Positions 207 through 12,066 of a stretch of 28,728 nt of DNA are shown here, piece by piece. Location of the stretch: assembly GCA_034722215.1 (NCBI GenBank), contig JAYENS010000047.1, positions 1-28,728 on the forward strand, given 5' to 3'. This stretch comes from Nanobdellota archaeon (GTDB lineage: Archaea; Nanobdellota; Nanobdellia; Pacearchaeales; GW2011-AR1). A program made the position numbers and the translations under genes. Under the pieces are notes generated by a model. It did not search any database. It saw only the letters and a list, made by a program, of their open reading frames with translations, and was not told where the DNA came from. Numbering within the stretch: the first letter of the stretch is position 1; the number at the start of each line of letters is the position of its first letter.

Positions 207-422
207 ATGTTAGATGTAGAATTAAAATCAAAAATAAACTTGTTATGGAATAAATTTTGGAGTGGTGGAATTAGTAATCCTCTGAATGCAATTGAGCAAA
301 TGTCTTACTTAATCTTTATGAAAAGATTAGAGGATGAAGATAATTCAAGAGAACAAAATGCTAAACTTTTAGGGGAAGAATTTACTTCATTATTTCCGAA
401 GAATGATTGCTTTTTATCTTGA
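207..422 (+). pseudogene. hsdM: Truncated type I restriction-modification methyltransferase (HsdM N-terminal fragment)
   Basis: LKSKINLLWNKFWSGGISNPLNAIEQMSYLIFMKRLE is the typical HsdM N-terminus. It stops after 71 aa with no methyltransferase motifs downstream. Confidence 0.8.
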
Positions 423-458
423 CAAGATTTATAAATAGTAAAGAGCACACACAATTGC

Positions 459-554
459 ATGAAAAATAATACTTATTCAAATAAGCTAATACAAACTATT
501 ACTCTCGATAAAAATTCTTCTCACCCCCTTCCAGATGCTCCAATAGCCCGATAG
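459..554 (+). CDS. Possible 31-aa small ORF (MKNNTYSNKLIQTITLDKNSSHPLPDAPIAR) or 5' part of a small RNA
   Basis: ATG 459, TAG 552-554, TATA-like TTTATAAA at 428-435; no family recognised. Confidence 0.3.
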   Translation: MKNNTYSNKLIQTITLDKNSSHPLPDAPIAR

Positions 555-1097: not shown

Positions 1098-1436
1098 ATG
1101 GTAAAAAAGAAAGTGACAAAAAAAAAAGTAGTGAAAAAAAAGATTCCTACTAAAAAAAGAACTTCTAAAAAAAAGAGTACTCGCAGTTCTGTATATACTA
1201 AAACACTGAATAAAGGAGCAAAAAAACAAAATATTTTAAAAAAAGGAAAATTCAAAACACATAAACTTTTCAAAAGTTCATTAATTGGATTTATATTGTC
1301 TTTAATAATTGTATGGATTTCTCAAAATGAAGTAATTGATGCTTTTTTTGGACTCATTTTAATAATTTCAGGAGCATTAATAATTCTTTCAATCCTTTTG
1401 GAGATAATCTTCTTGGTTCTTAAAAATAAAAAATAA
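1098..1436 (+). CDS. Hypothetical membrane protein with a very Lys-rich N-terminal tail
   Basis: 112 aa; MVKKKVTKKKVVKKK... followed by two C-terminal hydrophobic helices. Confidence 0.75.
   Translation: MVKKKVTKKKVVKKKIPTKKRTSKKKSTRSSVYTKTLNKGAKKQNILKKGKFKTHKLFKSSLIGFILSLIIVWISQNEVIDAFFGLILIISGALIILSILLEIIFLVLKNKK
1184..1211 (+). repeat. Diverged copy of the in-frame coding repeat (encodes SSVYTKTLN)
   Basis: CAGTTCTGTATATACTAAAACACTGAAT matches the reverse complement of the 11950-11983 copy at 22 of 28 positions without gaps. Confidence 0.45.
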
Positions 1437-1439
1437 ATT

Positions 1440-3116
1440 TTATTTATATTTTTCAAAAATAGTTTCTAAATTAATTTCTAATAAAACAATAGGCATTTTA
1501 CATTTCCAATTCTTTAAAATTTTAGGATGAATTTCTCCCAAATTTCCTATAATTTTTTTATTAAATAAAATATTAACAGATCTTCCCTCAATAAAATAAC
1601 CATTTGATTTTTCTTGTTCTTCTATTTCAAATTTTAAATCTAATGTTTTCTCTAAATATTCTAAAATTTGTTTAAGTTCTGTAAAATTTCCTGGACTAAG
1701 TCCAATACTTAATCTTTCAGATTCAATCAACTCTTCTGTTTCTTTAGATTCAAAAACTCTTCCAATTTCAAAAATTCTATGAGGATATTCTCTATCTATA
1801 TTTTCAGAAAAAATCTTCATTAAATAATGAGATAAATCTTTTCTAAGGATATTATTTTCTGTTTTTGATTCTTCAACTTCAATAAAACCTTTTTCTTGTT
1901 TTTCATTAATTCCCATTTTTGTAAATTGATTTTGTTTTTTTGTTAAATGATAATTAGAAATTTCTAATAATCCTAACCCAATAAGAATCTCAGAAATTTT
2001 TCTTTTAATAATTTCTTTAGATTGTTCGCTTCCAATACAGGAGATATTAGGAATAACAGATTCAAATTTATCATAACCATAAGCGATTGCAACTTCTTCA
2101 ATTAAATCAACTTCTCCAAGGATGTCAACCCTCCAAGAAGGAATTTCTACAAAACCTTTTTCATAATTATGTCCCATCTTTTGAAAAAGAGGTTTCAAAT
2201 CTTTTTCTTTTAAATCTAATCCAAGAAGTTTATTTATTTTTTCAACAGAAACTTTCATTTTTTCTGTCTTAAAATTAGGAGTTATTTTTGTCCTAGAATT
2301 CTTAGATTTGGGGTATGCAGAACTGTACCAAACTTTCATTGGATAGATTTTTCCTCCCATTTCAGAAAGTGTTGTAATAATCATATTCAAAGTTTTATTC
2401 AAGATTTCTTCTTCAAATCCTGAAACTTCTACAAAAACCTCTTTTGTTTTCAAATCAACTCTACCAGTATGTTCTGAATTAATTATTGGAGGCATTGAAA
2501 GGATTTTATTATCAGCATCGATGAAAATAGGAAAATTAGCCTTACATTTTAATAGATGAGCATAATCTTTTCCAGCAGGGTGTTTCTGAAGAACTTCTAA
2601 ACCAGACATCTCTCTTGAAGATTCTAAAGGGGTAAATTTAATTTTAAATGGTTCTATTGCTTTGTAAGTTATAGGAAGTTTAATTTTTTCTAAAGGATAA
2701 ATCCCAATTGCAAATTTTCCTCTTTTTCGTCCTAAAGTTGAATGTAACTTTTCTTGCAAATCAATAATTTCTTTAATTTTTTCATTATCAAGTTTTAAAT
2801 TTTTAACAATTGAGCAAACAGTTAAAGGACGAACTTCCTTTACAGAACTATCTATTTTAACTTTGTGATTTTTTTCAAGTTTGTTTAATTTATATTCTTT
2901 CAAACCTTTTCTTTTTCCAAGAAAAGTTAAAAATTCTCTTTTAAAATTTCCATAACTTAACAAATCAGGTCTATTTGGAGTAATATCTAATTCAATTTCT
3001 TTATCTCCTACACTTTCAACAGTTGTTCCAAAAAGAGCAATTTTATTTTGAAAACTTTCTGTTAATTTCCCAATTTCTTTTTCAAATTTTTTCTTATTAA
3101 ATTTTACTGATGCCAT
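1440..3116 (-). CDS. pheT: Phenylalanine--tRNA ligase beta subunit (archaeal type)
   Basis: DITPNRPDLLS, MPPIINSEHTGRV and RVDILGEVDLIEEVAIAYGY motifs; 558 aa; adjacent to pheS. Confidence 0.97.
   Translation of the reverse strand: MASVKFNKKKFEKEIGKLTESFQNKIALFGTTVESVGDKEIELDITPNRPDLLSYGNFKREFLTFLGKRKGLKEYKLNKLEKNHKVKIDSSVKEVRPLTVCSIVKNLKLDNEKIKEIIDLQEKLHSTLGRKRGKFAIGIYPLEKIKLPITYKAIEPFKIKFTPLESSREMSGLEVLQKHPAGKDYAHLLKCKANFPIFIDADNKILSMPPIINSEHTGRVDLKTKEVFVEVSGFEEEILNKTLNMIITTLSEMGGKIYPMKVWYSSAYPKSKNSRTKITPNFKTEKMKVSVEKINKLLGLDLKEKDLKPLFQKMGHNYEKGFVEIPSWRVDILGEVDLIEEVAIAYGYDKFESVIPNISCIGSEQSKEIIKRKISEILIGLGLLEISNYHLTKKQNQFTKMGINEKQEKGFIEVEESKTENNILRKDLSHYLMKIFSENIDREYPHRIFEIGRVFESKETEELIESERLSIGLSPGNFTELKQILEYLEKTLDLKFEIEEQEKSNGYFIEGRSVNILFNKKIIGNLGEIHPKILKNWKCKMPIVLLEINLETIFEKYK
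2292..2325 (-). repeat. 34-bp repeat inside pheT (encodes SSAYPKSKNSR)
   Basis: 28/34 ungapped identity to 11950-11983. Confidence 0.75.
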
Positions 3117-3117
3117 T

Positions 3118-4629
3118 TTAAACTCCTATCCAACTTTTCATTTTTCTAAGTTGGTCAATATCATTTTTATATAATTCTCTTAAATCTTTAATTTTATAAT
3201 AATCCATTAAAATTCTATCAAATCCCGGACCCCAAGCTAAAACAGGAATATTTTCTCCAAAAAGTGCAACACTAACTTCTGGTCTAAAAATTCCAGCTCC
3301 ACCTAATTCCAGCCAAATCTTTTTTTCAGGATGCCAAGCATCAATTTCTAAAGAAGGTTCTGTATAAGGAAAATAAGCAGGCCTAATTCTAATATCTTCA
3401 AATCCCATTTTACTAAAAAATTGTTTTAAGTAACCAATCAAATGCCTAAAATTCCCATTTCTATCTACAACAATTCCTTCTGATTGATTAAATTCAAAAC
3501 CATGCGACCAATCAATTGTTTCATTTCTAAAACATTTTCCAATTGAAAAGTATTTTTTAGGCAAATCTTCTTTTTTTAATTTAGCAAGAGTTTGCGCCGA
3601 AACGCAAGTTGTATGAGTTCTCAAACACATTTTCTTTGTAAGTTCTTCATTCCATTTATATTTCCAACCTTTACTTCCTTCAACTCCTTTTTCATGAGAT
3701 TTTTTCACGGCTTCAATAATTTTCTTTTCAGGAAGTTTTCCTTTTTTATTAATAAAGAAAGTATCTTGCATTTCTCTAACAGGATGATCTTGTGCAGTAA
3801 ATAATGCATCAAAATTCCAAAAACTAGTTTGAATATAATCTCCACTCATTTCTTCAAATCCCATTTCAGTCCAAATTTTTCGAGCACCATCAATACTTGA
3901 ATTTACAAAATGTCTTTTTCCTCCATAAATTTTTGGAACAGGAGCAGTCACATCATAACGTCTAAACTTTTTTCCTTTCCAATTTTTTTCATTTTTCAAA
4001 ATTTCAGGAGTTATTTGTTCAATCAATTCTTTTCCAAGTTCCTTTGAATTCATAATTTTTTTACCAACAGGAAGAATTTTAATAGTAGTAATTCGCTTTT
4101 CATCAACTTGAACAATACCTCTTCTTTTTTGTAAATTTTTCAAAGCAAGTTTCTCTTCTACTTTTAATGAATTTTCTTCTAAAGGTAAAGAGTCAATAAA
4201 AATTTCCTCTAAACTTTTTTTAGAAATTTCCTCATTGGGCGCATTAAGAATTAACTTACCATTTTTCAATTCAATCAATGCTTTTTGTTTTAAAGTTCCA
4301 ATAGAAACTTTGAATTCATTAGGACTTAATTTAGATTCTTTTTGAGCTTCATTTAAACCAATAATTCTTTTTTGGCTAAGTAATAAAAGTAATCTTCTTT
4401 CAGGCAATCCTTTTTTTCTGTAAAGAGCTCCATTAATTCCAACATTAATAATTCTCTTTTTTTTAACATTTAATTTAACTAAATTTTTATTTTGAAGATA
4501 TTCTAAAGCTCTTAAAACAGAAATTTTATCTAAGTTTGATTTTTTACAAATATCTGAAATATTCCTCTCTTCCAAAAAAGGTAAGATTTTTCTTTCCATA
4601 GGACTAAGAGATTCCATCAATTTTTCCAT
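3118..4629 (-). CDS. pheS: Phenylalanine--tRNA ligase alpha subunit (archaeal/eukaryotic type with N-terminal extension)
   Basis: FWNFDALFTAQDHPVREMQDTFF, LRTHTT, FRNETIDWSH, PAYFPYTEPSLE and AWGPGFDR motifs. Confidence 0.98.
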   Translation of the reverse strand: MEKLMESLSPMERKILPFLEERNISDICKKSNLDKISVLRALEYLQNKNLVKLNVKKKRIINVGINGALYRKKGLPERRLLLLLSQKRIIGLNEAQKESKLSPNEFKVSIGTLKQKALIELKNGKLILNAPNEEISKKSLEEIFIDSLPLEENSLKVEEKLALKNLQKRRGIVQVDEKRITTIKILPVGKKIMNSKELGKELIEQITPEILKNEKNWKGKKFRRYDVTAPVPKIYGGKRHFVNSSIDGARKIWTEMGFEEMSGDYIQTSFWNFDALFTAQDHPVREMQDTFFINKKGKLPEKKIIEAVKKSHEKGVEGSKGWKYKWNEELTKKMCLRTHTTCVSAQTLAKLKKEDLPKKYFSIGKCFRNETIDWSHGFEFNQSEGIVVDRNGNFRHLIGYLKQFFSKMGFEDIRIRPAYFPYTEPSLEIDAWHPEKKIWLELGGAGIFRPEVSVALFGENIPVLAWGPGFDRILMDYYKIKDLRELYKNDIDQLRKMKSWIGV

Positions 4630-4668
4630 AATTATTCCAAGATTTTGGTTCTTAAAAAAGGTTTGTTT

Positions 4669-4944
4669 TTAATATGCATAATCATAATGGACAAAATCTT
4701 CAAAGAAAATTATATTATTTTTAAATTGAAAAGTTAAAACAAAACTTCCAACATGAACTCTCTTCAAATTGTTTAAAGGTTTTTTCAAATTTTTAAAATG
4801 ATTTATCTCCTCTAAATTAGAACCAATAATTTGAAAAACTTTCTTTTCAAAACTCTTGAAAAGTTTTTTATCTCTCTTTTTAACTAAGTAGAAATCTCCA
4901 CATTTCAATGTGGATTTGTTGAATTCTACTTTCAATTCTGACAA
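4669..4944 (-). CDS. RelE/ParE-superfamily toxin-like protein (TTG start)
   Basis: HFKNLKKPLNNLKRVHVGSFVLTF...FEDFVHYD resembles archaeal RelE-like mRNA interferases; 91 aa. Confidence 0.65.
   Translation of the reverse strand: MSELKVEFNKSTLKCGDFYLVKKRDKKLFKSFEKKVFQIIGSNLEEINHFKNLKKPLNNLKRVHVGSFVLTFQFKNNIIFFEDFVHYDYAY
4886..4931. repeat. Two-tier inverted repeat inside the RelE-like CDS
   Basis: AAGTAGAA (4886-4893)/TTCTACTT (4924-4931) enclose TCCACATT (4897-4904)/AATGTGGA (4907-4914). Confidence 0.7.
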
Positions 4945-5044
4945 AAATATTTATTCTAAAAGGATATTATAATTAAAAGAAAAAAGCCGAGATACTCAGT
5001 TATTGAATAAAACATTTTATAAATAATTTTAATCTTAGATTTAT

Positions 5045-6334
5045 ATGAAAAAAAGAGGAATGTCTCAAGTAGTTTCAACAATCCTATTAATCTTATTAAT
5101 TCTTATAGCAATTGGAGGAATTTGGGCCGCTTTAAACCAGTTCATTTTTTCAGAAACTTCAAAGATAAGTTTAACAAAATTAACAACAGATGTAAAAATA
5201 AAAAATGTTGCAATTAACGCAACTTCTGGAATTGCAGATATAAGAGTAATGAGAGATATCGGAGAAGGAAATATAACAGCTATAAAATTTATTGTTAAGG
5301 ATACTAAAACTTCAGAGGTTTTTGAAGTTCCTGTAGAAGATTTTGTAGAATTATCTGAGAGAACAATTTCTCTAAATTTTTCAGAAAGTGAATTATTAAA
5401 TATCTCAGATGTTTATGAAATTTCAATTGCACCAGTTTATATTTCACCAACTACTGGAAATTCTCAAATAGGAAGAATTACAGATAGTGTAGGGGATTTA
5501 TTTATTTATGTTAATGGAACTACTTCTACAGGAGGAGGTTCTTCTCCAGATGGAACTTTTTGTTCAATTCCTTCTGACTGTGGAACAGATGCTTGGGTAA
5601 ATGCAACTCAACTTTGTTCAGAAGATACTACAAAAGTTTTACAATATAAAAAAGTTTTTTCATGTACTTTAAGTTTTTGTACAAGCACAACAGATCAATA
5701 CACTAAAGAAAGTTGTGTAGAAGGAGATTATTGTTTTAATGGAGAATGTATTAATCACCCAATTCCTTGTACTAATGCAACAGTTGAACTAGATTGTGGA
5801 ACAGCTGGCTTTATAGGTCAATTACGTTGTGCTTCTTCATCCCCTCCTCATGTAACAGTTCAAGATTATAGGAATTACTCTTGTGTAAATAATTTATGTC
5901 AAGAAACAACTTATGAACAAACAGTTGAAACTTGTATTTCAGGAGATGAATGTTTCAACGGAGAGTGTTTTACACCTGTAGAATGTATTCAATATGAAGA
6001 TTGTGACTTGGGAAAAATTTGTGAGGGAGGACTTTGTGTAACAGAACTTTTTTCAAATAATGGAACAATAAGATCTGTTTGGCCTTATGGAATAGGAGAA
6101 TATTTTGATAGTTTTGAATTACCTTCAGATAACACTTCTAATTTTGATGCAACAAATAATTATATTATTTTTCCTTATAGTTCTGAAACAAGATGTTTAC
6201 AAGTAAAAGAATTTACCAAACCAGGTTTTGTAGGAGGTATTTCTTATATAAGATTAAATGAAACTCCTACAAATATTTCAGATAATGATGTTTACCAGCT
6301 TTGGGAGACAGATTATGCGTGTAGTTTAATTTAA
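5045..6334 (+). CDS. Type IV pilin/archaellin-like protein with a cysteine-rich repeat region
   Basis: Class III signal peptide-like start MKKRG|MSQVVSTILLILLILIAIGGIW; 22 Cys, all in the C-terminal part, including two 8-Cys repeats ending CFNGEC. Confidence 0.8.
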   Translation: MKKRGMSQVVSTILLILLILIAIGGIWAALNQFIFSETSKISLTKLTTDVKIKNVAINATSGIADIRVMRDIGEGNITAIKFIVKDTKTSEVFEVPVEDFVELSERTISLNFSESELLNISDVYEISIAPVYISPTTGNSQIGRITDSVGDLFIYVNGTTSTGGGSSPDGTFCSIPSDCGTDAWVNATQLCSEDTTKVLQYKKVFSCTLSFCTSTTDQYTKESCVEGDYCFNGECINHPIPCTNATVELDCGTAGFIGQLRCASSSPPHVTVQDYRNYSCVNNLCQETTYEQTVETCISGDECFNGECFTPVECIQYEDCDLGKICEGGLCVTELFSNNGTIRSVWPYGIGEYFDSFELPSDNTSNFDATNNYIIFPYSSETRCLQVKEFTKPGFVGGISYIRLNETPTNISDNDVYQLWETDYACSLI

Positions 6335-6760
6335 CTCCTTAACCATCCAAGTAGGCATTCCTAAAATTAATCCTAAACTTTTACAATCATGAGTTTCAGG
6401 ACAATCAAAAAATTTTATTTGAATTTTATTTTTATTACATAAAAAAATATTCTGTTTTAAACGAGCAAGAATTTTTTCTTTATCTTTTGCATTAAGAATT
6501 TCCTTAAAATCAACCCCAAGAGAAATATTATTTTTCTTTGCAATTTTTGCCATAACTTGATTAAATCCAGAATTTCTTTGTTTCATATAATCTTTCCTAT
6601 TTTCAAGAGGAATTAGAATAATTTGAATATTTAATTTTTCCATAACCTTACGATTCAAATCATCATCAGAAGAACTAAACACAATCTTTTTTTCTTTATT
6701 TTTTTTAACAAGTTCTTTTAACTTATTGAAATTAGTCTCTGTTAGGATAATTCTTTTCAT
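6326..6760 (-). CDS. rnp3: Ribonuclease P protein subunit Rpp30 (short form)
   Basis: DDDLNRKVME, RKDYMKQRNSGFNQVMAKIAKKNNISLGVDF and SLGLILGM match the Rpp30 pattern; 144 aa. Confidence 0.8.
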   Translation of the reverse strand: MKRIILTETNFNKLKELVKKNKEKKIVFSSSDDDLNRKVMEKLNIQIILIPLENRKDYMKQRNSGFNQVMAKIAKKNNISLGVDFKEILNAKDKEKILARLKQNIFLCNKNKIQIKFFDCPETHDCKSLGLILGMPTWMVKELN

Positions 6761-6790
6761 GTTTTTAATAAGAATAAAGGGTTTTTAGTT

Positions 6791-7474
6791 TTAACCTTCA
6801 ATAACAGTTCCAACAAATTTTTTATTTTTCAAAAAATTATCAAGTTCTTTAACGTCTTTAATTATCAAAGTTTTAATCTTGTTTTCCATAATAATTTTAG
6901 AAGCTGTTTGATCTAAAACAAAATGTTGTCCTGGTTTAAATTTTATTTTTTGTGCTAATTTATTAAATTTTTTCCAAGTTATTTTAGGAATATATTTTGC
7001 ATTTTTAAACATTTTAGGATTTTTATCATAAAGTCCTTTAATATTTGTAACATTCACAAATTCTCCCTTAAGTTTTCTAGCAATCTCTGCAGCAGTTGAA
7101 TCAGAAGTTTGGTTTGGTTTATATTTCAAAGCGCCACAAATTACAAAGTTTCTTTTTTTCAAATATTTTTTCAATGTTTTAATATTGTGAGGAATTCCCC
7201 ATTCGGGATTATATCCAAAAAAATATGAAACAAAACGCGCGTTTGCACGAGTCGCATTAATTCCTACTAAAGATTGATGATATAAATCTCCTTTCTCTTT
7301 TGCAATCGCTTCAATATATTTTCTAGCAAGATTTCCTCCTCCACAAACAACAACAATTTTATATTTTTTCTTATGTTTAATTATAACTTCCTTAAATTTT
7401 TTTAAATAAGAATAATTAACTTTATCTGGAATTATTTGGCTACCTCCAAGACTAATAACAATCACCTTTTTCAT
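6791..7474 (-). CDS. pyrH: Uridylate kinase (archaeal type)
   Basis: VISLGGS, VVCGGGNLARKYI, TSDSTAA, TNIKGLYDKNPK and PGQHFVLDQTA motifs. Confidence 0.95.
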   Translation of the reverse strand: MKKVIVISLGGSQIIPDKVNYSYLKKFKEVIIKHKKKYKIVVVCGGGNLARKYIEAIAKEKGDLYHQSLVGINATRANARFVSYFFGYNPEWGIPHNIKTLKKYLKKRNFVICGALKYKPNQTSDSTAAEIARKLKGEFVNVTNIKGLYDKNPKMFKNAKYIPKITWKKFNKLAQKIKFKPGQHFVLDQTASKIIMENKIKTLIIKDVKELDNFLKNKKFVGTVIEG

Positions 7475-7582
7475 ATACTCTAAAACAAAATAATCTTTTT
7501 ATAGTTTGTTAAAAGAATTTTTTGTAGTTAAATTAATTAACCTTCCAAAATAAAGAAGGAACACATCTTCTGATATTATCAA

Positions 7583-7589
7583 TTATAAA
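7583..7589 (+). promoter_or_regulatory. TATA-like box positioned to drive transcription of the repeat array
   Basis: TTATAAA about 22-29 nt upstream of 7611-7618 where the first unit begins; same spacing as promoters of coding genes in the window. Confidence 0.45.
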
Positions 7590-7610
7590 TGTTTTAGCGA
7601 CACGGAGTGC

Positions 7611-7904
7611 GAGTTAGGTTGTAAGAGAACTAGTGGATTTATTTATTTTTATCGTTTCTATCGGAAGCATTTTTAGAAACAACCATTCACTTCTTCAAGG
7701 AGAGTTGTAAGAGAACCAGCGGATTTATTTGTTTTTTTGTGACTTCAGACGAGGGCTCAATAAGAAGTCACCGTTCAGTGTTTTGAGGAGAGTTGTAAGA
7801 GAACCAGCGGATTTATTTGTTTTTTTGTGACTTCAGACGAGGGCTCAATAAGAAGTCACCGTTCAGTGTTTTGAGGAGAGTTGTAAGAGAACCAGCGGGT
7901 TCTT
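7611..7904 (+). repeat. Non-coding tandem array of 86-88 bp hairpin-containing units
   Basis: Anchor GTTGTAAGAGAACYAGYGG at 7618, 7704, 7792 and 7880. Units 2 and 3 are identical; unit 1 differs but keeps a hairpin at the same position. Confidence 0.92.
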
Positions 7905-8186
7905 TTACTTCACTGTAAATAAATCCCGATCATCGACTTGAAAGACATCTAATCTAACCCCTGAATCAATCCATCCATGAGCATAATTTAAAGCACCAAA
8001 AGCTAAAACCCATTCTCCTTTTTCTTCAAAATGTTGTGCATCTGAAATATAATTACCAACCATTTCAATTATCTCTTTTGCATATTCTTCCTTTCCAGGG
8101 ATAATACTTTCTTTAACAATTTTAAAAGCATCTTGAGTGATTTTAAAATATCTTTCTAATTTGTCTTGAGTTATTTCTTTATTCAT
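7905..8186 (-). CDS. DUF357 family archaeal protein
   Basis: YISDAQHFEEKGEWVLAFGALNYAHGWIDSGVRLDVF is the DUF357 signature; 93 aa. Confidence 0.9.
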   Translation of the reverse strand: MNKEITQDKLERYFKITQDAFKIVKESIIPGKEEYAKEIIEMVGNYISDAQHFEEKGEWVLAFGALNYAHGWIDSGVRLDVFQVDDRDLFTVK

Positions 8187-8241
8187 ATTATTACATTTCC
8201 ATAGATATTTAAATATCTTTATTTTTTAATAAATAGGTAAA

Positions 8242-8937
8242 ATGAGGAAAAAAATAGTTATTTTTGTAATGATCTTTGTATTGTTCTTAGCAACAAGCGT
8301 TGTAGCAGAAACAATTTCAGTAACAAATGAAATGGGAGAAATCATAAAAGATATAGCTTTAACAAAAGGAGTTTCCAAAGAAAATATTAAAGAAATACAA
8401 GAAGTTAATTTTGAAGAATTACCTGAAGAGATAAGCTTAGAGAATATTGATGATACAAATTTGGCATTGTATAAAGTTGATACTGGAGGAGATAAACCTC
8501 TTTATGTAATAACAGCGTCGGAGACAAAATTCAAAAAAGTTATACAAAAATTCACAAATAAGATGATGCTTAGTTTTGGTTTTTCAGAAGATTTTTCTAA
8601 ATCAGGATATTTAAAAAGTTCAACAGGAGTATTAGGAGATCTTGAAAAAGGATATCCTATGATGAGAACAGGAAGTATTACAGGAATGTCTACTAATTTA
8701 GAGGTTATAGAAGGTGAAGGAGAAATTGAAATAATTATTTACAAAGATAAACAAGAAGTAGAATTTAGAAATGCTTTTAATATAAAGAATACTGGAATAT
8801 ATACAGATTACGATACTCTATCTGGAGAAATTTTAAATTTTCAACCAGGAGATGTTATTTCAATCTATGTTGAAATTCCAAAAGGAATGATTTTAAAAGA
8901 CATAAATACTCTTTTAGAAATAGAATCAGAAAATTGA
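8242..8937 (+). CDS. Hypothetical secreted or membrane-anchored protein
   Basis: Signal-peptide-like N-terminus MRKKIVIFVMIFVLFLATSVVA; acidic 231-aa protein. Confidence 0.85.
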   Translation: MRKKIVIFVMIFVLFLATSVVAETISVTNEMGEIIKDIALTKGVSKENIKEIQEVNFEELPEEISLENIDDTNLALYKVDTGGDKPLYVITASETKFKKVIQKFTNKMMLSFGFSEDFSKSGYLKSSTGVLGDLEKGYPMMRTGSITGMSTNLEVIEGEGEIEIIIYKDKQEVEFRNAFNIKNTGIYTDYDTLSGEILNFQPGDVISIYVEIPKGMILKDINTLLEIESEN

Positions 8938-8952
8938 AAGGAGGTTTAAAAT

Positions 8953-9240
8953 ATGAATTACGATAAAAAAGACAAATCAAATAGAATGATGAAAATCCTT
9001 ATAGGAGTGATTATTGTATTAGTGGTATTTATAGCATTTTTCTTCTTAATAAAACCAGGGTATAATAAATTTGTATATAATCAACAAATGCAAGGTTATA
9101 ATATAGGAGTAACAGATATTTATACAAATATGTTAACTCAAATAGAAAATAGTGGAGCTTATCAAGTACCCATAAGTGAAAATCAAACATTAATTTTGGT
9201 TCCTTATAATCCAAACCTTCCTGCTACTCCAGCAGCTTAG
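8953..9240 (+). CDS. Hypothetical single-pass membrane protein
   Basis: 95 aa with one TM helix; GGAGGT SD-like sequence just upstream of the ATG. Confidence 0.85.
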   Translation: MNYDKKDKSNRMMKILIGVIIVLVVFIAFFFLIKPGYNKFVYNQQMQGYNIGVTDIYTNMLTQIENSGAYQVPISENQTLILVPYNPNLPATPAA

Positions 9241-9274
9241 GTTTTTTATATTTTACCTTGTTTATAAGGTTTTC

Positions 9275-9303
9275 ACACCTCTCGAGGGTGTTTTTTATTT
9301 TTT
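9275..9303 (+). terminator. Hairpin plus T-tract after the 8242-9240 gene pair
   Basis: ACACC(T)CTCGAGGGTGT followed by TTTTTATTTTTTTG; a second small stem ACCTT/AAGGT lies at 9255-9270. Confidence 0.55.
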
Positions 9304-9391
9304 TGATTTAGTTACTTACAAGAAGATAATTTATAAAGTGAAAGGTTTAAATATTTATTTTTTATTATTATTTTAAAGGTTGTTACTTACA

Positions 9392-10882
9392 ATGGCATAT
9401 AAAAAATATATTAAAAGAAATGGGAAGATTTATGGCCCATATATTTATCATAGTAAACGTGTTGATGGGAAAGTTGTTTCCGAATATAAAGGTCCAAAAA
9501 AATTAGAAAAAGATTTTAAAAAATTAAAATTAATTTTAACAATAGCAGGAATGATAATTATTGCTGTCTTTCTTCTATGGATTTTATTAACAAAAACTCA
9601 AATTACAGGAAATGTTGTTGCAGAAAAACAATCTTATCTTTCCAAGAGTAAAATTTTTGGAAATTTAAATTTAGTGTTACAAGAGGGAGAATTAATTCCA
9701 ATAAATTCGAAAGTATTTATAAAAAGTGGAGAAAACTCTTATGAATATAATCTTTCAGAATTAATTTCTTCACAACAAACTTCTGGAAATTATTATTTAG
9801 AAAATGTAAATGTACAAGGCTCTGGAGAAGGTTTTGGATTTCCTGGAAATTCAGAAGATGCTGAAACAATATTTTTTCAATATAAAATAACAAAACAAAA
9901 TTATTCTCCAGAACCAGAGGAATCTCTAAAAGAAGATTTAATAGAAATTATTGAAGAAAATAAAACAGAAGAAAATAAAACAGAAGAAAATAAAACAGAA
10001 GAAAATAAAACAGAAAAGAATAAGACAATTAGTGTTGAAGAAAATACTTCAATAATAGAACCTCCTGAAGAAAATGAAAGTTCTGAATCTATTTCAGATT
10101 CAACAGAAGAATTAGAACAAATTGAAGAGACTCCTAAAACAACTCCTATAACTGGCGCAGTAATTGGAGATATTTCAAATAAATTGTTCAAGATAACTGG
10201 AAATGTTGTAAATGAAAATATTCAAGCAGATGTTTCAAAAGATAAAGAATTCAAATATAAATTAAAAGAAGATGAGAAATTTGAAATAATTTATGATTCA
10301 GTAAGAATAGAAGAAGGTCAAATAAGTCAAGATAATTTAAAAATTGAATATCAGGATAATTTTGTAATTGTTTCAACAGTTTATTCTAAACAAGAAAAAG
10401 GTTTTGGAAAAGATTATTTAAGTTTAAATAAAAAAGCTTATGAAATTTTGTTAGGAGAAGAATTATTCACTCAAGATTTAGAAGTAAAAATAATTTATCA
10501 AGATAAGGAAATAGCTTTCTATTCTCAAAAAGCAGAATTAGCAATTCAAACTCCTGAAGAACCAGAAAAAATTCTCCTTGTCGAAGAAGATTATACTCTT
10601 GAATTAAATCAAGAAGAAATTGATATTTTAAAAGAAAGATTTGGAGAAATAGAAATTTCAACTTCTGCACAAATTTATAGAGATAAAACATTAGTAATTT
10701 TCAAGATAAGTGATTATCAAATAGAACATTATTATGATGGTGCTCTGCCAGATCAAGAAATAACAGATTTAATTGAACAAGATAAAATAAGATTTTTAAA
10801 AGATTTTGCAAGAGAATTCTTGAAACAAGAACAACAAAAACAACCTTTGCAAATTTTTACTGATTCAGAAATTATTACCTAA
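9392..10882 (+). CDS. Membrane-anchored acidic surface protein with a basic N-terminal motif
   Basis: Likely start ATG 9392 (MAYKKYIKRNGKIYGPYIYHSKRVDGKVVSEY), one TM helix, and a large acidic extracellular part. Confidence 0.85.
   Translation: MAYKKYIKRNGKIYGPYIYHSKRVDGKVVSEYKGPKKLEKDFKKLKLILTIAGMIIIAVFLLWILLTKTQITGNVVAEKQSYLSKSKIFGNLNLVLQEGELIPINSKVFIKSGENSYEYNLSELISSQQTSGNYYLENVNVQGSGEGFGFPGNSEDAETIFFQYKITKQNYSPEPEESLKEDLIEIIEENKTEENKTEENKTEENKTEKNKTISVEENTSIIEPPEENESSESISDSTEELEQIEETPKTTPITGAVIGDISNKLFKITGNVVNENIQADVSKDKEFKYKLKEDEKFEIIYDSVRIEEGQISQDNLKIEYQDNFVIVSTVYSKQEKGFGKDYLSLNKKAYEILLGEELFTQDLEVKIIYQDKEIAFYSQKAELAIQTPEEPEKILLVEEDYTLELNQEEIDILKERFGEIEISTSAQIYRDKTLVIFKISDYQIEHYYDGALPDQEITDLIEQDKIRFLKDFAREFLKQEQQKQPLQIFTDSEIIT
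9953..10027 (+). repeat. 15-bp coding tandem repeat (EENKT x4 plus EKNKT)
   Basis: GAAGAAAATAAAACA four times, then GAAAAGAATAAGACA. Confidence 0.95.
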
Positions 10883-11543
10883 TTTTTCTAATTAAAAAAC
10901 TAGAACCTTTTTTAGGAGAAATGTTTGCATCCAAAATTAAATTCCCGTAAATTATTTTTAAAGGACCTTCTTGTACAGGAATTTTTGCAGCTTTAGAAAA
11001 TTTATCAATAATTTCATTTATCTCTTCTTTATTCAATACAATTCCTGTAGATTGTCTTCCCATTTTTCCAGTAACAATTATTTTTTTATTTTGTTCAGAA
11101 ATTTCCATTGTAACCACATTTGGATCACTAATAAGAGGATTAATTTTTCCTAATTCAATTGATTCTGCTGTAGCAATAGGTTTAATATTATTATTGTTTT
11201 CAACAGGTCTTAAAGGAGCTCTTACAGGTCTTCTCATTAAAGATTTTCTTTTAATAGGGACTCTTAAAGATTCTTCTGCCCTTTTTAGTTGAAAGAAATC
11301 TTCTTCAGGTGGAGAAAGAATACTTTTAGACATTTTTACAATTGTTTTATCTTTTTGTAATTTTTCTTTAACTTGTTCTTCTACACTTTTTGGAGAAAAT
11401 TCCTCATTTTCAACAATTACATTTTTTAATTTTAAAATTTCTTTAAGTCTATAAAATTCAGCAACTTTAGAATTTTTAATCATAGCTTCTGTAAAACTTA
11501 ATAAAAAATATCCCTTTCTTTCTAAATTATAATCTTCTATCAT
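10875..11543 (-). CDS. Protein ending in a stand-alone VirB11/CpaF ATPase N-terminal-like domain, no P-loop
   Basis: LGKINPLISDPNVVTMEI...LNKEEINEIIDKFSKAAKIPV...SFLIRKI resembles the N-domain of secretion ATPases; no Walker A motif present. Confidence 0.6.
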   Translation of the reverse strand: MIEDYNLERKGYFLLSFTEAMIKNSKVAEFYRLKEILKLKNVIVENEEFSPKSVEEQVKEKLQKDKTIVKMSKSILSPPEEDFFQLKRAEESLRVPIKRKSLMRRPVRAPLRPVENNNNIKPIATAESIELGKINPLISDPNVVTMEISEQNKKIIVTGKMGRQSTGIVLNKEEINEIIDKFSKAAKIPVQEGPLKIIYGNLILDANISPKKGSSFLIRKIR

Positions 11544-11544
11544 C

Positions 11545-12066
11545 TTATTGAAATTTATTAAAGGGTTCTGAACTTTCTTTTACAATTCTTTTTTTCGGAG
11601 GATTATTCCCTAATCTTCTTGGAATATTCACTTCATTAGAACCTATTGCATAATTTATATTAGGATCTGTAGCAGTATCATGTATTAAAGTTAATCCTTT
11701 TGCAAGAAGTTTATTTTGTTCTAAAATAGCATCAATTTTTGTTATCAATTCTCTTTTTGATTTTTCATCAATTGGATGGAATTCTTTATTTATTACAGAC
11801 TTTGCAGCACCTTCAAACATATTTAATAAATCATCAATCCTATTTGTTAAGTCACTAAATTTTTCAGTTAGATGAACAAGAATTTTTTGCATTGAAACAA
11901 AATTATCAATCAAAATTTTTTCAGTAGCAGGTCTAACATCCTTTTTTACCCTAGAATTTCGTGTTTTGGAGTATGCAGAACTGCCTGTTTTATGTCCTTT
12001 CTTCAAGTATGTTTTTTTAGAAGCATTACTGTGTATCTTTTTTTTAACCACCTTCTTTTTTGTCAT
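11545..12066 (-). CDS. Hypothetical coiled-coil protein with a Lys-rich N-terminus
   Basis: 173 aa; heptad-like LTEKFSDLTNRIDDLLNMFE; 1-nt gap to the downstream gene. Confidence 0.85.
   Translation of the reverse strand: MTKKKVVKKKIHSNASKKTYLKKGHKTGSSAYSKTRNSRVKKDVRPATEKILIDNFVSMQKILVHLTEKFSDLTNRIDDLLNMFEGAAKSVINKEFHPIDEKSKRELITKIDAILEQNKLLAKGLTLIHDTATDPNINYAIGSNEVNIPRRLGNNPPKKRIVKESSEPFNKFQ
11950..11983 (-). repeat. 34-bp repeat inside the coiled-coil gene (encodes SSAYSKTRNSR)
   Basis: 28/34 ungapped identity to 2292-2325. Confidence 0.75.

Follow-up and report, generated by a model that had tools for sequence, protein, structure and literature searches.

The Rickettsia palindromic elements (RPEs; Ogata et al. 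2000) are, as summarised in PMC2229807 and PMC10969869, 105–146 bp long and possess terminal inverted repeats (TIRs); in-frame fusions are known from 19 open reading frames (ORFs), one of which was shown to be translated. The same sources cite a precedent from the archaeon M. jannaschii, in which palindromic repeats also form part of proteins. Repetitive extragenic palindromic elements (REP/REPIN) are located outside of genes and occur as inverted doublets next to the gene of a REP-associated tyrosine transposase (RAYT) (PMC3116915). The subject of the present work is a dispersed short repeat which was detected in a 28,728-nt stretch of DNA (contig JAYENS010000047.1 of assembly GCA_034722215.1, Nanobdellota archaeon; the whole stretch is referred to as the window), where it is read in frame in pheT and in the genes for two further proteins of 173 and 112 amino acids. 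With a probability of about 0.7, we consider this repeat to represent non-autonomous miniature mobile DNA that is tolerated when translated in one frame.

The source genome (G000) was recovered from a brine metagenome and belongs to a DPANN archaeon of a Pacearchaeota-type lineage. It comprises 525 kb in 56 contigs (designated by C-numbers) at 27 % GC and is 81 % complete. Related metagenome-assembled genomes (MAGs) are labelled Pacearchaeota, Woesearchaeota or Nanoarchaeota; those referred to below are the same-genus relatives G034 and G002 and the same-order relative G067.

Repeat copies, host genes and empty sites

An earlier note on the window described the segments 2292-2325(-) and 11950-11983(-) as 28/34 identical without gaps and as read in a common frame and orientation. 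Direct comparison bears this out, the peptides encoded in the respective ORFs being SSAYPKSKNSR and SSAYSKTRNSR. The first copy (2289..2330, -; nhmmer and covariance model, CM) is located in pheT (1440..3116, -), which codes for an archaeal-type PheRS beta subunit of 558 aa; this gene assignment is confirmed by the Pfam domains B3_4, B5 and tRNA_synthFbeta, and orthologs with 60–69 % identity are present in 18 same-genus genomes. The net insert of 12 codons (36 nt) reads W-Y-S-S-A-Y-P-K-S-K-N-S and lies between the B3_4 and B5 domains. The second copy (11947..11985, -; CM 59.6 bits), reading G-S-S-A-Y-S-K-T-R-N-S-R-V, is situated in the K-rich N-terminal tail of a conserved 173-aa protein (11545..12066, -). 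This protein was defined by its ORF, its orthologs and a Pfam search, which assigned no family and lends no support to the previous label "coiled-coil". A third copy, suspected at 1184-1211(+), proved to be a true family member (1182..1220, +; CM 51.4 bits, E 2e-6) in frame in ORF 1098-1436. It is more diverged and older than the other two and reads R-S-S-V-Y-T-K-T-L-N-K-G-A; its host is a 112-aa protein with a C-terminal membrane segment, whose K-rich N-terminal tail it occupies; the gene (1098..1436, +; recognized by its ORF and syntenic orthologs) is convergent to pheT. The similarity among the window copies is far above chance: the 13-mer singled out in the note matches three times in the window at ≤2 mismatches (0.19 expected), and four exact copies exist in the whole genome, compared to 0.003 expected from a first-order Markov model.

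Iterated nhmmer searches of the G000 contigs (cut-off E < 0.01) yielded at least 17 units at about 14–15 loci, and the CM search (E up to 1.5e-4) 15 strong matches; the genome-wide count suggested earlier thus revealed further copies, which are strongly biased in strand and frame. Of about 15 loci, eleven are inside ORFs, and nine of these share one sense frame with a family peptide of approximately S-S-A-Y-P-K-T-L-N-S-G-A. Besides pheT (window 1440-3116, -) and the 173-aa and 112-aa window proteins, the hosts in this frame are an M16 peptidase (C31), a POR gamma/alpha subunit (C9), PolB (C55), the tail of a topoisomerase IA (C12), a DUF1003 protein (C34) and a K-rich protein (C35). MetRS (C6) harbours a copy in a second sense frame, and a PD-(D/E)XK nuclease (C54) one in antisense.

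Comparison with orthologs identified the PheT peptide as an insertion, as had been proposed: none of 19 orthologs (17 of them same-genus) possesses the segment, and the gap comprises exactly 12 codons. The other hosts were compared with orthologs from 4–5 same-genus genomes, relative to which the M16 peptidase is longer by 13–14 codons, MetRS by 13, PolB by net 13 and the POR subunit by 23–24 (about two units), while the antisense copy of the nuclease lies within an extra segment of 33–40 aa. Five same-genus orthologs of the 173-aa protein have variable K/S-rich tails devoid of the element, and six syntenic orthologs of the 112-aa protein lack it; these two cases are softer, because K-rich tails vary and align poorly. 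The reciprocal case is LeuRS, which has a 12-aa element insert in G067 and none in G000. Copies are shown to have entered intergenic DNA as well as coding DNA of this lineage after its split from the sister species, and the insertions are recent, since sister species display empty sites. The earlier proposal of a small mobile or recombinogenic element is supported by the further copies, by the insertion in PheT, by five more conserved hosts and by stop codons in intergenic units.

Two copies in sister species were recorded additionally. In G002, the tail of the 112-aa protein's ortholog contains an element at the corresponding position (L037, G002:C32:1588-1644), which belongs to another subfamily and forms a different yet still paired hairpin; either a hot spot was struck twice or compensatory changes occurred in place. 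In G034, a copy in the second frame (GASPGVPQNTEFRGKK; L039, G034:C2:47603-47661) is found in an N6-adenine/HemK-type methyltransferase, a short way upstream of its NPPY motif.

Among 22 same-genus genomes, the CM detected 1–2 copies each in G034 and G002 and none in the 20 others; a permissive re-search of five same-genus genomes added a few weak, diverged copies. Across 150 same-order genomes, two matches were obtained, both in G067, and a 20-mer of the element (≤2 mismatches) gave single matches in 3 of 400 same-phylum genomes. Since the element is abundant in G000 alone, with 15 strong matches compared to 0–2 per relative (~170 genomes), the family is patchy and has undergone a recent burst in this species. 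Exact-pattern scanning of JGI metagenomes retrieved the same core from four other contigs (30–38 % GC), intergenic in all cases, and one of them holds a perfect 38-nt tandem doublet downstream of the L1-L10-L12 ribosomal protein operon; a fifth match probably arose by chance. A viral source was considered and rejected, the exact 20-mer pattern having 0 matches in IMG/VR.

Hairpins, reading frames and intergenic clusters

The core of the element is 36–42 nt long, and its mean GC content is 41 % versus 27 % of the genome. Its 5' part consists of a short palindrome (GCAG-TT-CTGC or GCA-GTGA-TGC; 3–5-bp hairpin) followed by ATAC; its 3' part is composed of CCCCA, about 13 nt ending with GAATTC, and TGGGG (second hairpin), after which come CA and usually A5-7. 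The first hairpin occurs in the variants GCAG/CTGC, GTAG/CTAC, GTCG/CGAC, CACCG/CGGTG, CACTG/CAGTG and CGCCG/CGGCG. Alignment of 23 copies (15 G000 units, including the C37a unit, and 8 from relatives) supports the two small hairpins by compensatory changes: 77 % of the cells are paired versus 33–48 % with slid partners, double-change cells number 24 versus 4–13, and 0/500 shuffles reach the observed value. One position pair is represented as AU 14 / CG 8 / UA 1 and is never unpaired. Well-kept intergenic copies are predicted to fold into both hairpins (-9 to -13.6 kcal/mol), a fold that the two window gene copies have lost (RNAfold, -2.5 kcal/mol in pheT and -3.1 kcal/mol). Two other anatomies were tried and rejected. 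A single long palindrome does not agree with the prediction of only two short hairpins. An archaeal C/D box small RNA (D = CUGA, ~12-nt guides, C'/D') is not matched by the box order in tandem pairs; any likeness to a C box (RUGAUGA) is confined to the GTGATGC subfamily, and an Rfam search of the element returned no family match.

Covarying hairpins would also be expected of a selected cis-acting signal on the sense strand, i.e., a 3'-untranslated region (3'-UTR) stability or processing signal or a protein-binding site, with the gene copies as by-products or as the same signal. Such a role would agree with the intergenic copies placed in sense orientation directly after stop codons, with a core that is exactly conserved over 20 nt in unrelated contigs of 30–38 % GC, and with the different but still paired hairpin of the G002 copy at the 112-aa-protein site. 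On the other hand, Rfam contains no matching family, the fold is lost in the coding copies of the window, the orthologous genes of about 20 sister genomes do without the element, and copy numbers differ about 10-fold between sister species. We therefore regard a signal in place of mobility as unlikely; moreover, a signal function and mobility do not compete but can coexist.

Conservation at the level of DNA, as postulated earlier, is apparent from the intergenic stops, the rare codons, the elevated GC content, the second sense frame and the antisense copy. In the long ORFs of G000, TAC accounts for 13 % of Tyr, AGG for 10 % of Arg and CCC for 5 % of Pro codons, while GGG and GGC provide 9 % and 3 % of the glycine codons; TAC and AGG had thus rightly been called unexpected here. 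The consensus is open in 5 of 6 frames, and no intragenic copy uses the single frame that contains TGA. The chance of nine out of 11 loci falling into one of five open frames is P ~1e-4 by a binomial estimate. This shared frame with its recognizable peptide, together with the many copies in Lys-rich tails, could be taken to indicate a linear protein motif (for modification, binding or sorting) with secondary DNA similarity. Such a motif is very improbable and this reading is already largely refuted: intergenic units bear stops, one copy is in another frame and one in antisense, rare codons are used and are identical at synonymous sites, compensatory hairpin changes make no sense for a protein, and the housekeeping enzymes of sister species lack the motif.

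The positions occupied within proteins are inter-domain linkers, tails or loops in every case. In the AlphaFold (AF2) model of PheT (mean predicted local distance difference test, pLDDT, 89.8), the insert forms a coil between strands 256–264 and 276–279, and pLDDT drops below 50 at residues 270–273. The previous suggestion that copies land in protein loops is therefore backed by this low-confidence loop, whereas the "domestication" attached to it is unproven and the inserts look tolerated.

The units outside ORFs are intergenic; their family frame is interrupted by stops, and they are clustered head to tail. Overall, 16 of about 17 units are oriented like the local gene. Two units directly follow a stop codon on C25, two lie after rtcB on C23, two to three before rtcB on C37, and one after a gene on C42. 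The rtcB gene itself is split over the C37 and C23 contigs, which overlap by 186 nt, and has element clusters of the same orientation on both sides (G000:C37:9650-9792 and G000:C23:1650-1743). Further small hairpin modules (e.g., GGTGTAT...ATACACC) are present in the C37 cluster, and a GC-rich hairpin (GGGGGC...GCCCC; G000:C42:27640-27700) directly follows the C42 copy between convergent genes; in the AT-rich G000, GC-rich hairpin modules seem to gather at the 3' ends of genes.

Coding inserts measure 36, 39–42, 39 and 69–72 nt, while the intergenic units recur with periods of 35, 37–38 and 38 nt. In-frame insert lengths and the unused TGA frame are the pattern to be expected if inserts are translated and only those that keep the frame survive. 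The same observations bear on the proposition that inserts are removed from the mRNA by the archaeal splicing endonuclease and RtcB, or bypassed by the ribosome as in the case of byp elements. The byp elements of yeast mitochondria, attributed to work of Lang et al. from 2014, are reportedly GC-rich hairpins in an AT-rich genome, as are the hairpins found here, and element clusters border the rtcB gene on either side. Against removal or bypassing speak the intragenic copies, which are all stop-free and multiples of 3 as opposed to the 35–38 nt of the intergenic units, and the lack of a copy in the TGA-bearing frame; furthermore, no bulge-helix-bulge was evident in the predicted folds, for which no dedicated search was run. 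We consider this proposition scarcely credible.

Integration, candidate enzymes and retroelements

In intergenic DNA, inserted copies of the mobile DNA favoured here form tandem clusters just after or before genes. Within genes, the survivors would be those that keep the frame, use the polar stop-free frame and fall into linkers, loops or tails; these would be translated as 12–14 extra residues and later decay. In front of many copies stand several bases resembling the 3' end of the element (AATTCT / RGG), and empty sites, where visible in a close relative, already hold such an end-like motif (GTA ACT TCT|TAT for M16 in G034, AAT TCT AAG for POR orthologs). The motifs at the targets suggest an end-homology-guided or sequence-specific integration, for which no enzyme was identified. 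Somewhat more tentatively, integration may favour sites like the element's own 3' end (AAYTCT / RGG beside an A-run), possibly guided by end homology and catalysed by an enzyme supplied in trans and encoded outside the assembled 81 % of the genome.

Several observations weigh against this account. A Y1/HUH protein (PF01797) was not matched at E up to 1 in the 81 %-complete G000, so that the TnpA/RAYT-type HUH nuclease for which the earlier note suggested looking was not found; its absence is unproven, because the assembly is only 81 % complete. TnpB gave no match above the cut-off in G000 (only sub-threshold zinc-ribbon-like matches), and no transposase was detected in a search that excluded the DDE and serine/tyrosine recombinase families. 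Self-BLAST of G000 revealed assembly overlaps and a few gene duplicates only, thus no insertion sequence (IS)-like multi-copy repeat and no longer palindromic parent as had been envisaged. The copies examined possess neither terminal inverted repeats nor a clean target-site duplication, and the ends of the element can be placed only to within a few bases. That the inserts are translated is deduced rather than observed. Finally, the hairpin model was derived from the very sequences on which it was counted, and single-copy folding energies are mostly no better than those of shuffles (z +0.8 to -2.5); because of these weak thermodynamic scores, the claim of a hairpin structure rests on covariation.

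The end structure of the copies raises a different route, in which RNA of the sense-strand element is copied into DNA by the reverse transcriptase (RT) of the genome in the manner of a short interspersed nuclear element (SINE), with priming on A/T-rich targets. An intact RT gene does exist in G000, most copies end with C/T plus A5-7, the orientation of 16 of about 17 units follows the local gene, and the flanks resemble the end of the element. However, the only intact RT resides in a classical diversity-generating retroelement (DGR; G000:C15:2685-4157) with its own pair of template repeat (TR) and variable repeat (VR): the variable repeat (G000:C15:2685-2766) is located at the 3' end of a gene for 245 aa, the template repeat (G000:C15:3006-3087) differs from it by mismatches that coincide with template adenines in 10/10 cases, and the RT gene (G000:C15:3111-4157) codes for 348 aa. 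Moreover, the A-run of PheT is host sequence, and with 27 % GC and Lys-rich tails, A-runs are frequent in this genome. DGR-type RTs are not known to mobilize other RNAs. Retro-insertion is accordingly rather improbable, and the specific notion of a SINE-like retroposon in an archaeon, copied by a DGR-type RT, is to be judged as quite improbable. If true, retroposition by the DGR RT would account for the A-rich tail, for the sense orientation of nearly all copies and for targets homologous to the element's end.

That the element itself represents a DGR template or variable repeat was rejected, since copies differ at all four bases and show compensatory stem changes, and the C15 TR/VR pair is unrelated. 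A second RT fragment was noticed on C24. At window 411-469 and 605-679, a stretch of 61 nt shares 88 % identity with the 3' end of the C15 DGR RT gene; this remnant, which reads ...FINSKEHTQLHEK* and is located ~135 nt upstream of the gene for a tRNA-Gln(CTG), may have been left behind by a second retroelement.

Other repeats of the genome include a 795-nt duplicate with 90.6 % identity (G000:C8:3718-4508 and G000:C38:30279-31069), the longest internal repeat of the assembly, and a tandem array of 86–88-nt units at window 7611-7938, which has an 82–85 % identical relative at G000:C53:3046-3232. With this relative, the array represents a second dispersed repeat family in G000.

Relation to known miniature elements and implications

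The genes struck by the favoured miniature mobile DNA include the essential pheT, metG and polB, as well as leuS in a relative. With its recent insertions, essential host genes and no visible transposase, the lineage is well suited as a natural system for studying how mini-elements move and how much of the variation in protein length in reduced genomes stems from them. On a practical level, ortholog alignments, gene calling and phylogenetic markers based on indels can be led astray by such inserts in DPANN MAGs.

Among described systems, the likeness to RPEs extends to dispersed, hairpin-forming, non-autonomous repeats that occur in intergenic DNA and in frame in housekeeping genes with a family peptide, and to their occurrence in a host-dependent organism that has a small, AT-rich genome and no known transposase. 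In-frame gene fusion, a family peptide and intergenic copies were all found here, and to this extent the RPE precedent named earlier holds. It does not extend to size and termini: RPEs are bacterial and form one long stem-loop of 105–146 bp with ~12-bp TIRs, while the present element has 36–42 nt, two 3–9-bp hairpins, no TIR, direct-repeat-like ends, tandem clusters and nearly all copies oriented like genes; kinship in sequence would not be expected. The repeat of M. jannaschii, a euryarchaeal methanogen, belongs to a lineage different from the present DPANN host and is reportedly longer than the element described here.

With REP/REPIN the element shares a length of tens of nt, GC-rich small hairpins, clustering and lineage-specific sequence families. 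It differs by the 11 of ~15 intragenic loci and by head-to-tail doublets (C25, C23 and L157), and a PF01797 gene flanked by repeats was not found in the 81 %-complete G000. Transposable elements of the miniature inverted-repeat type (MITEs) are defined by TIRs, target-site duplication and 50–800 bp; the present element has no TIR and is below this size range, and the resemblance of the flanks to its 3' end blurs any reading as target-site duplication. The small dispersed repeats (SDRs) of heterocyst-forming cyanobacteria, attributed to Elhai et al. (2008; named in PMC3116915), are reportedly tens of nt long, mobile-looking, without a known enzyme, and adjacent or nested. Compared by description only, they resemble the present element in size and the lack of a known enzyme, and they are said to be bacterial and mostly non-coding.

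Because size and TIRs, as well as the extragenic location, the inverted doublets and the RAYT, do not agree, the element is not a member of the RPEs, the MITEs or REP/REPIN. It behaves like RPE/REP-type miniature elements and is a member of none. "Selfish DNA inside genes", as in Rickettsia and one methanogen, would in our view also operate in DPANN archaea, and do so at 36–42 nt.

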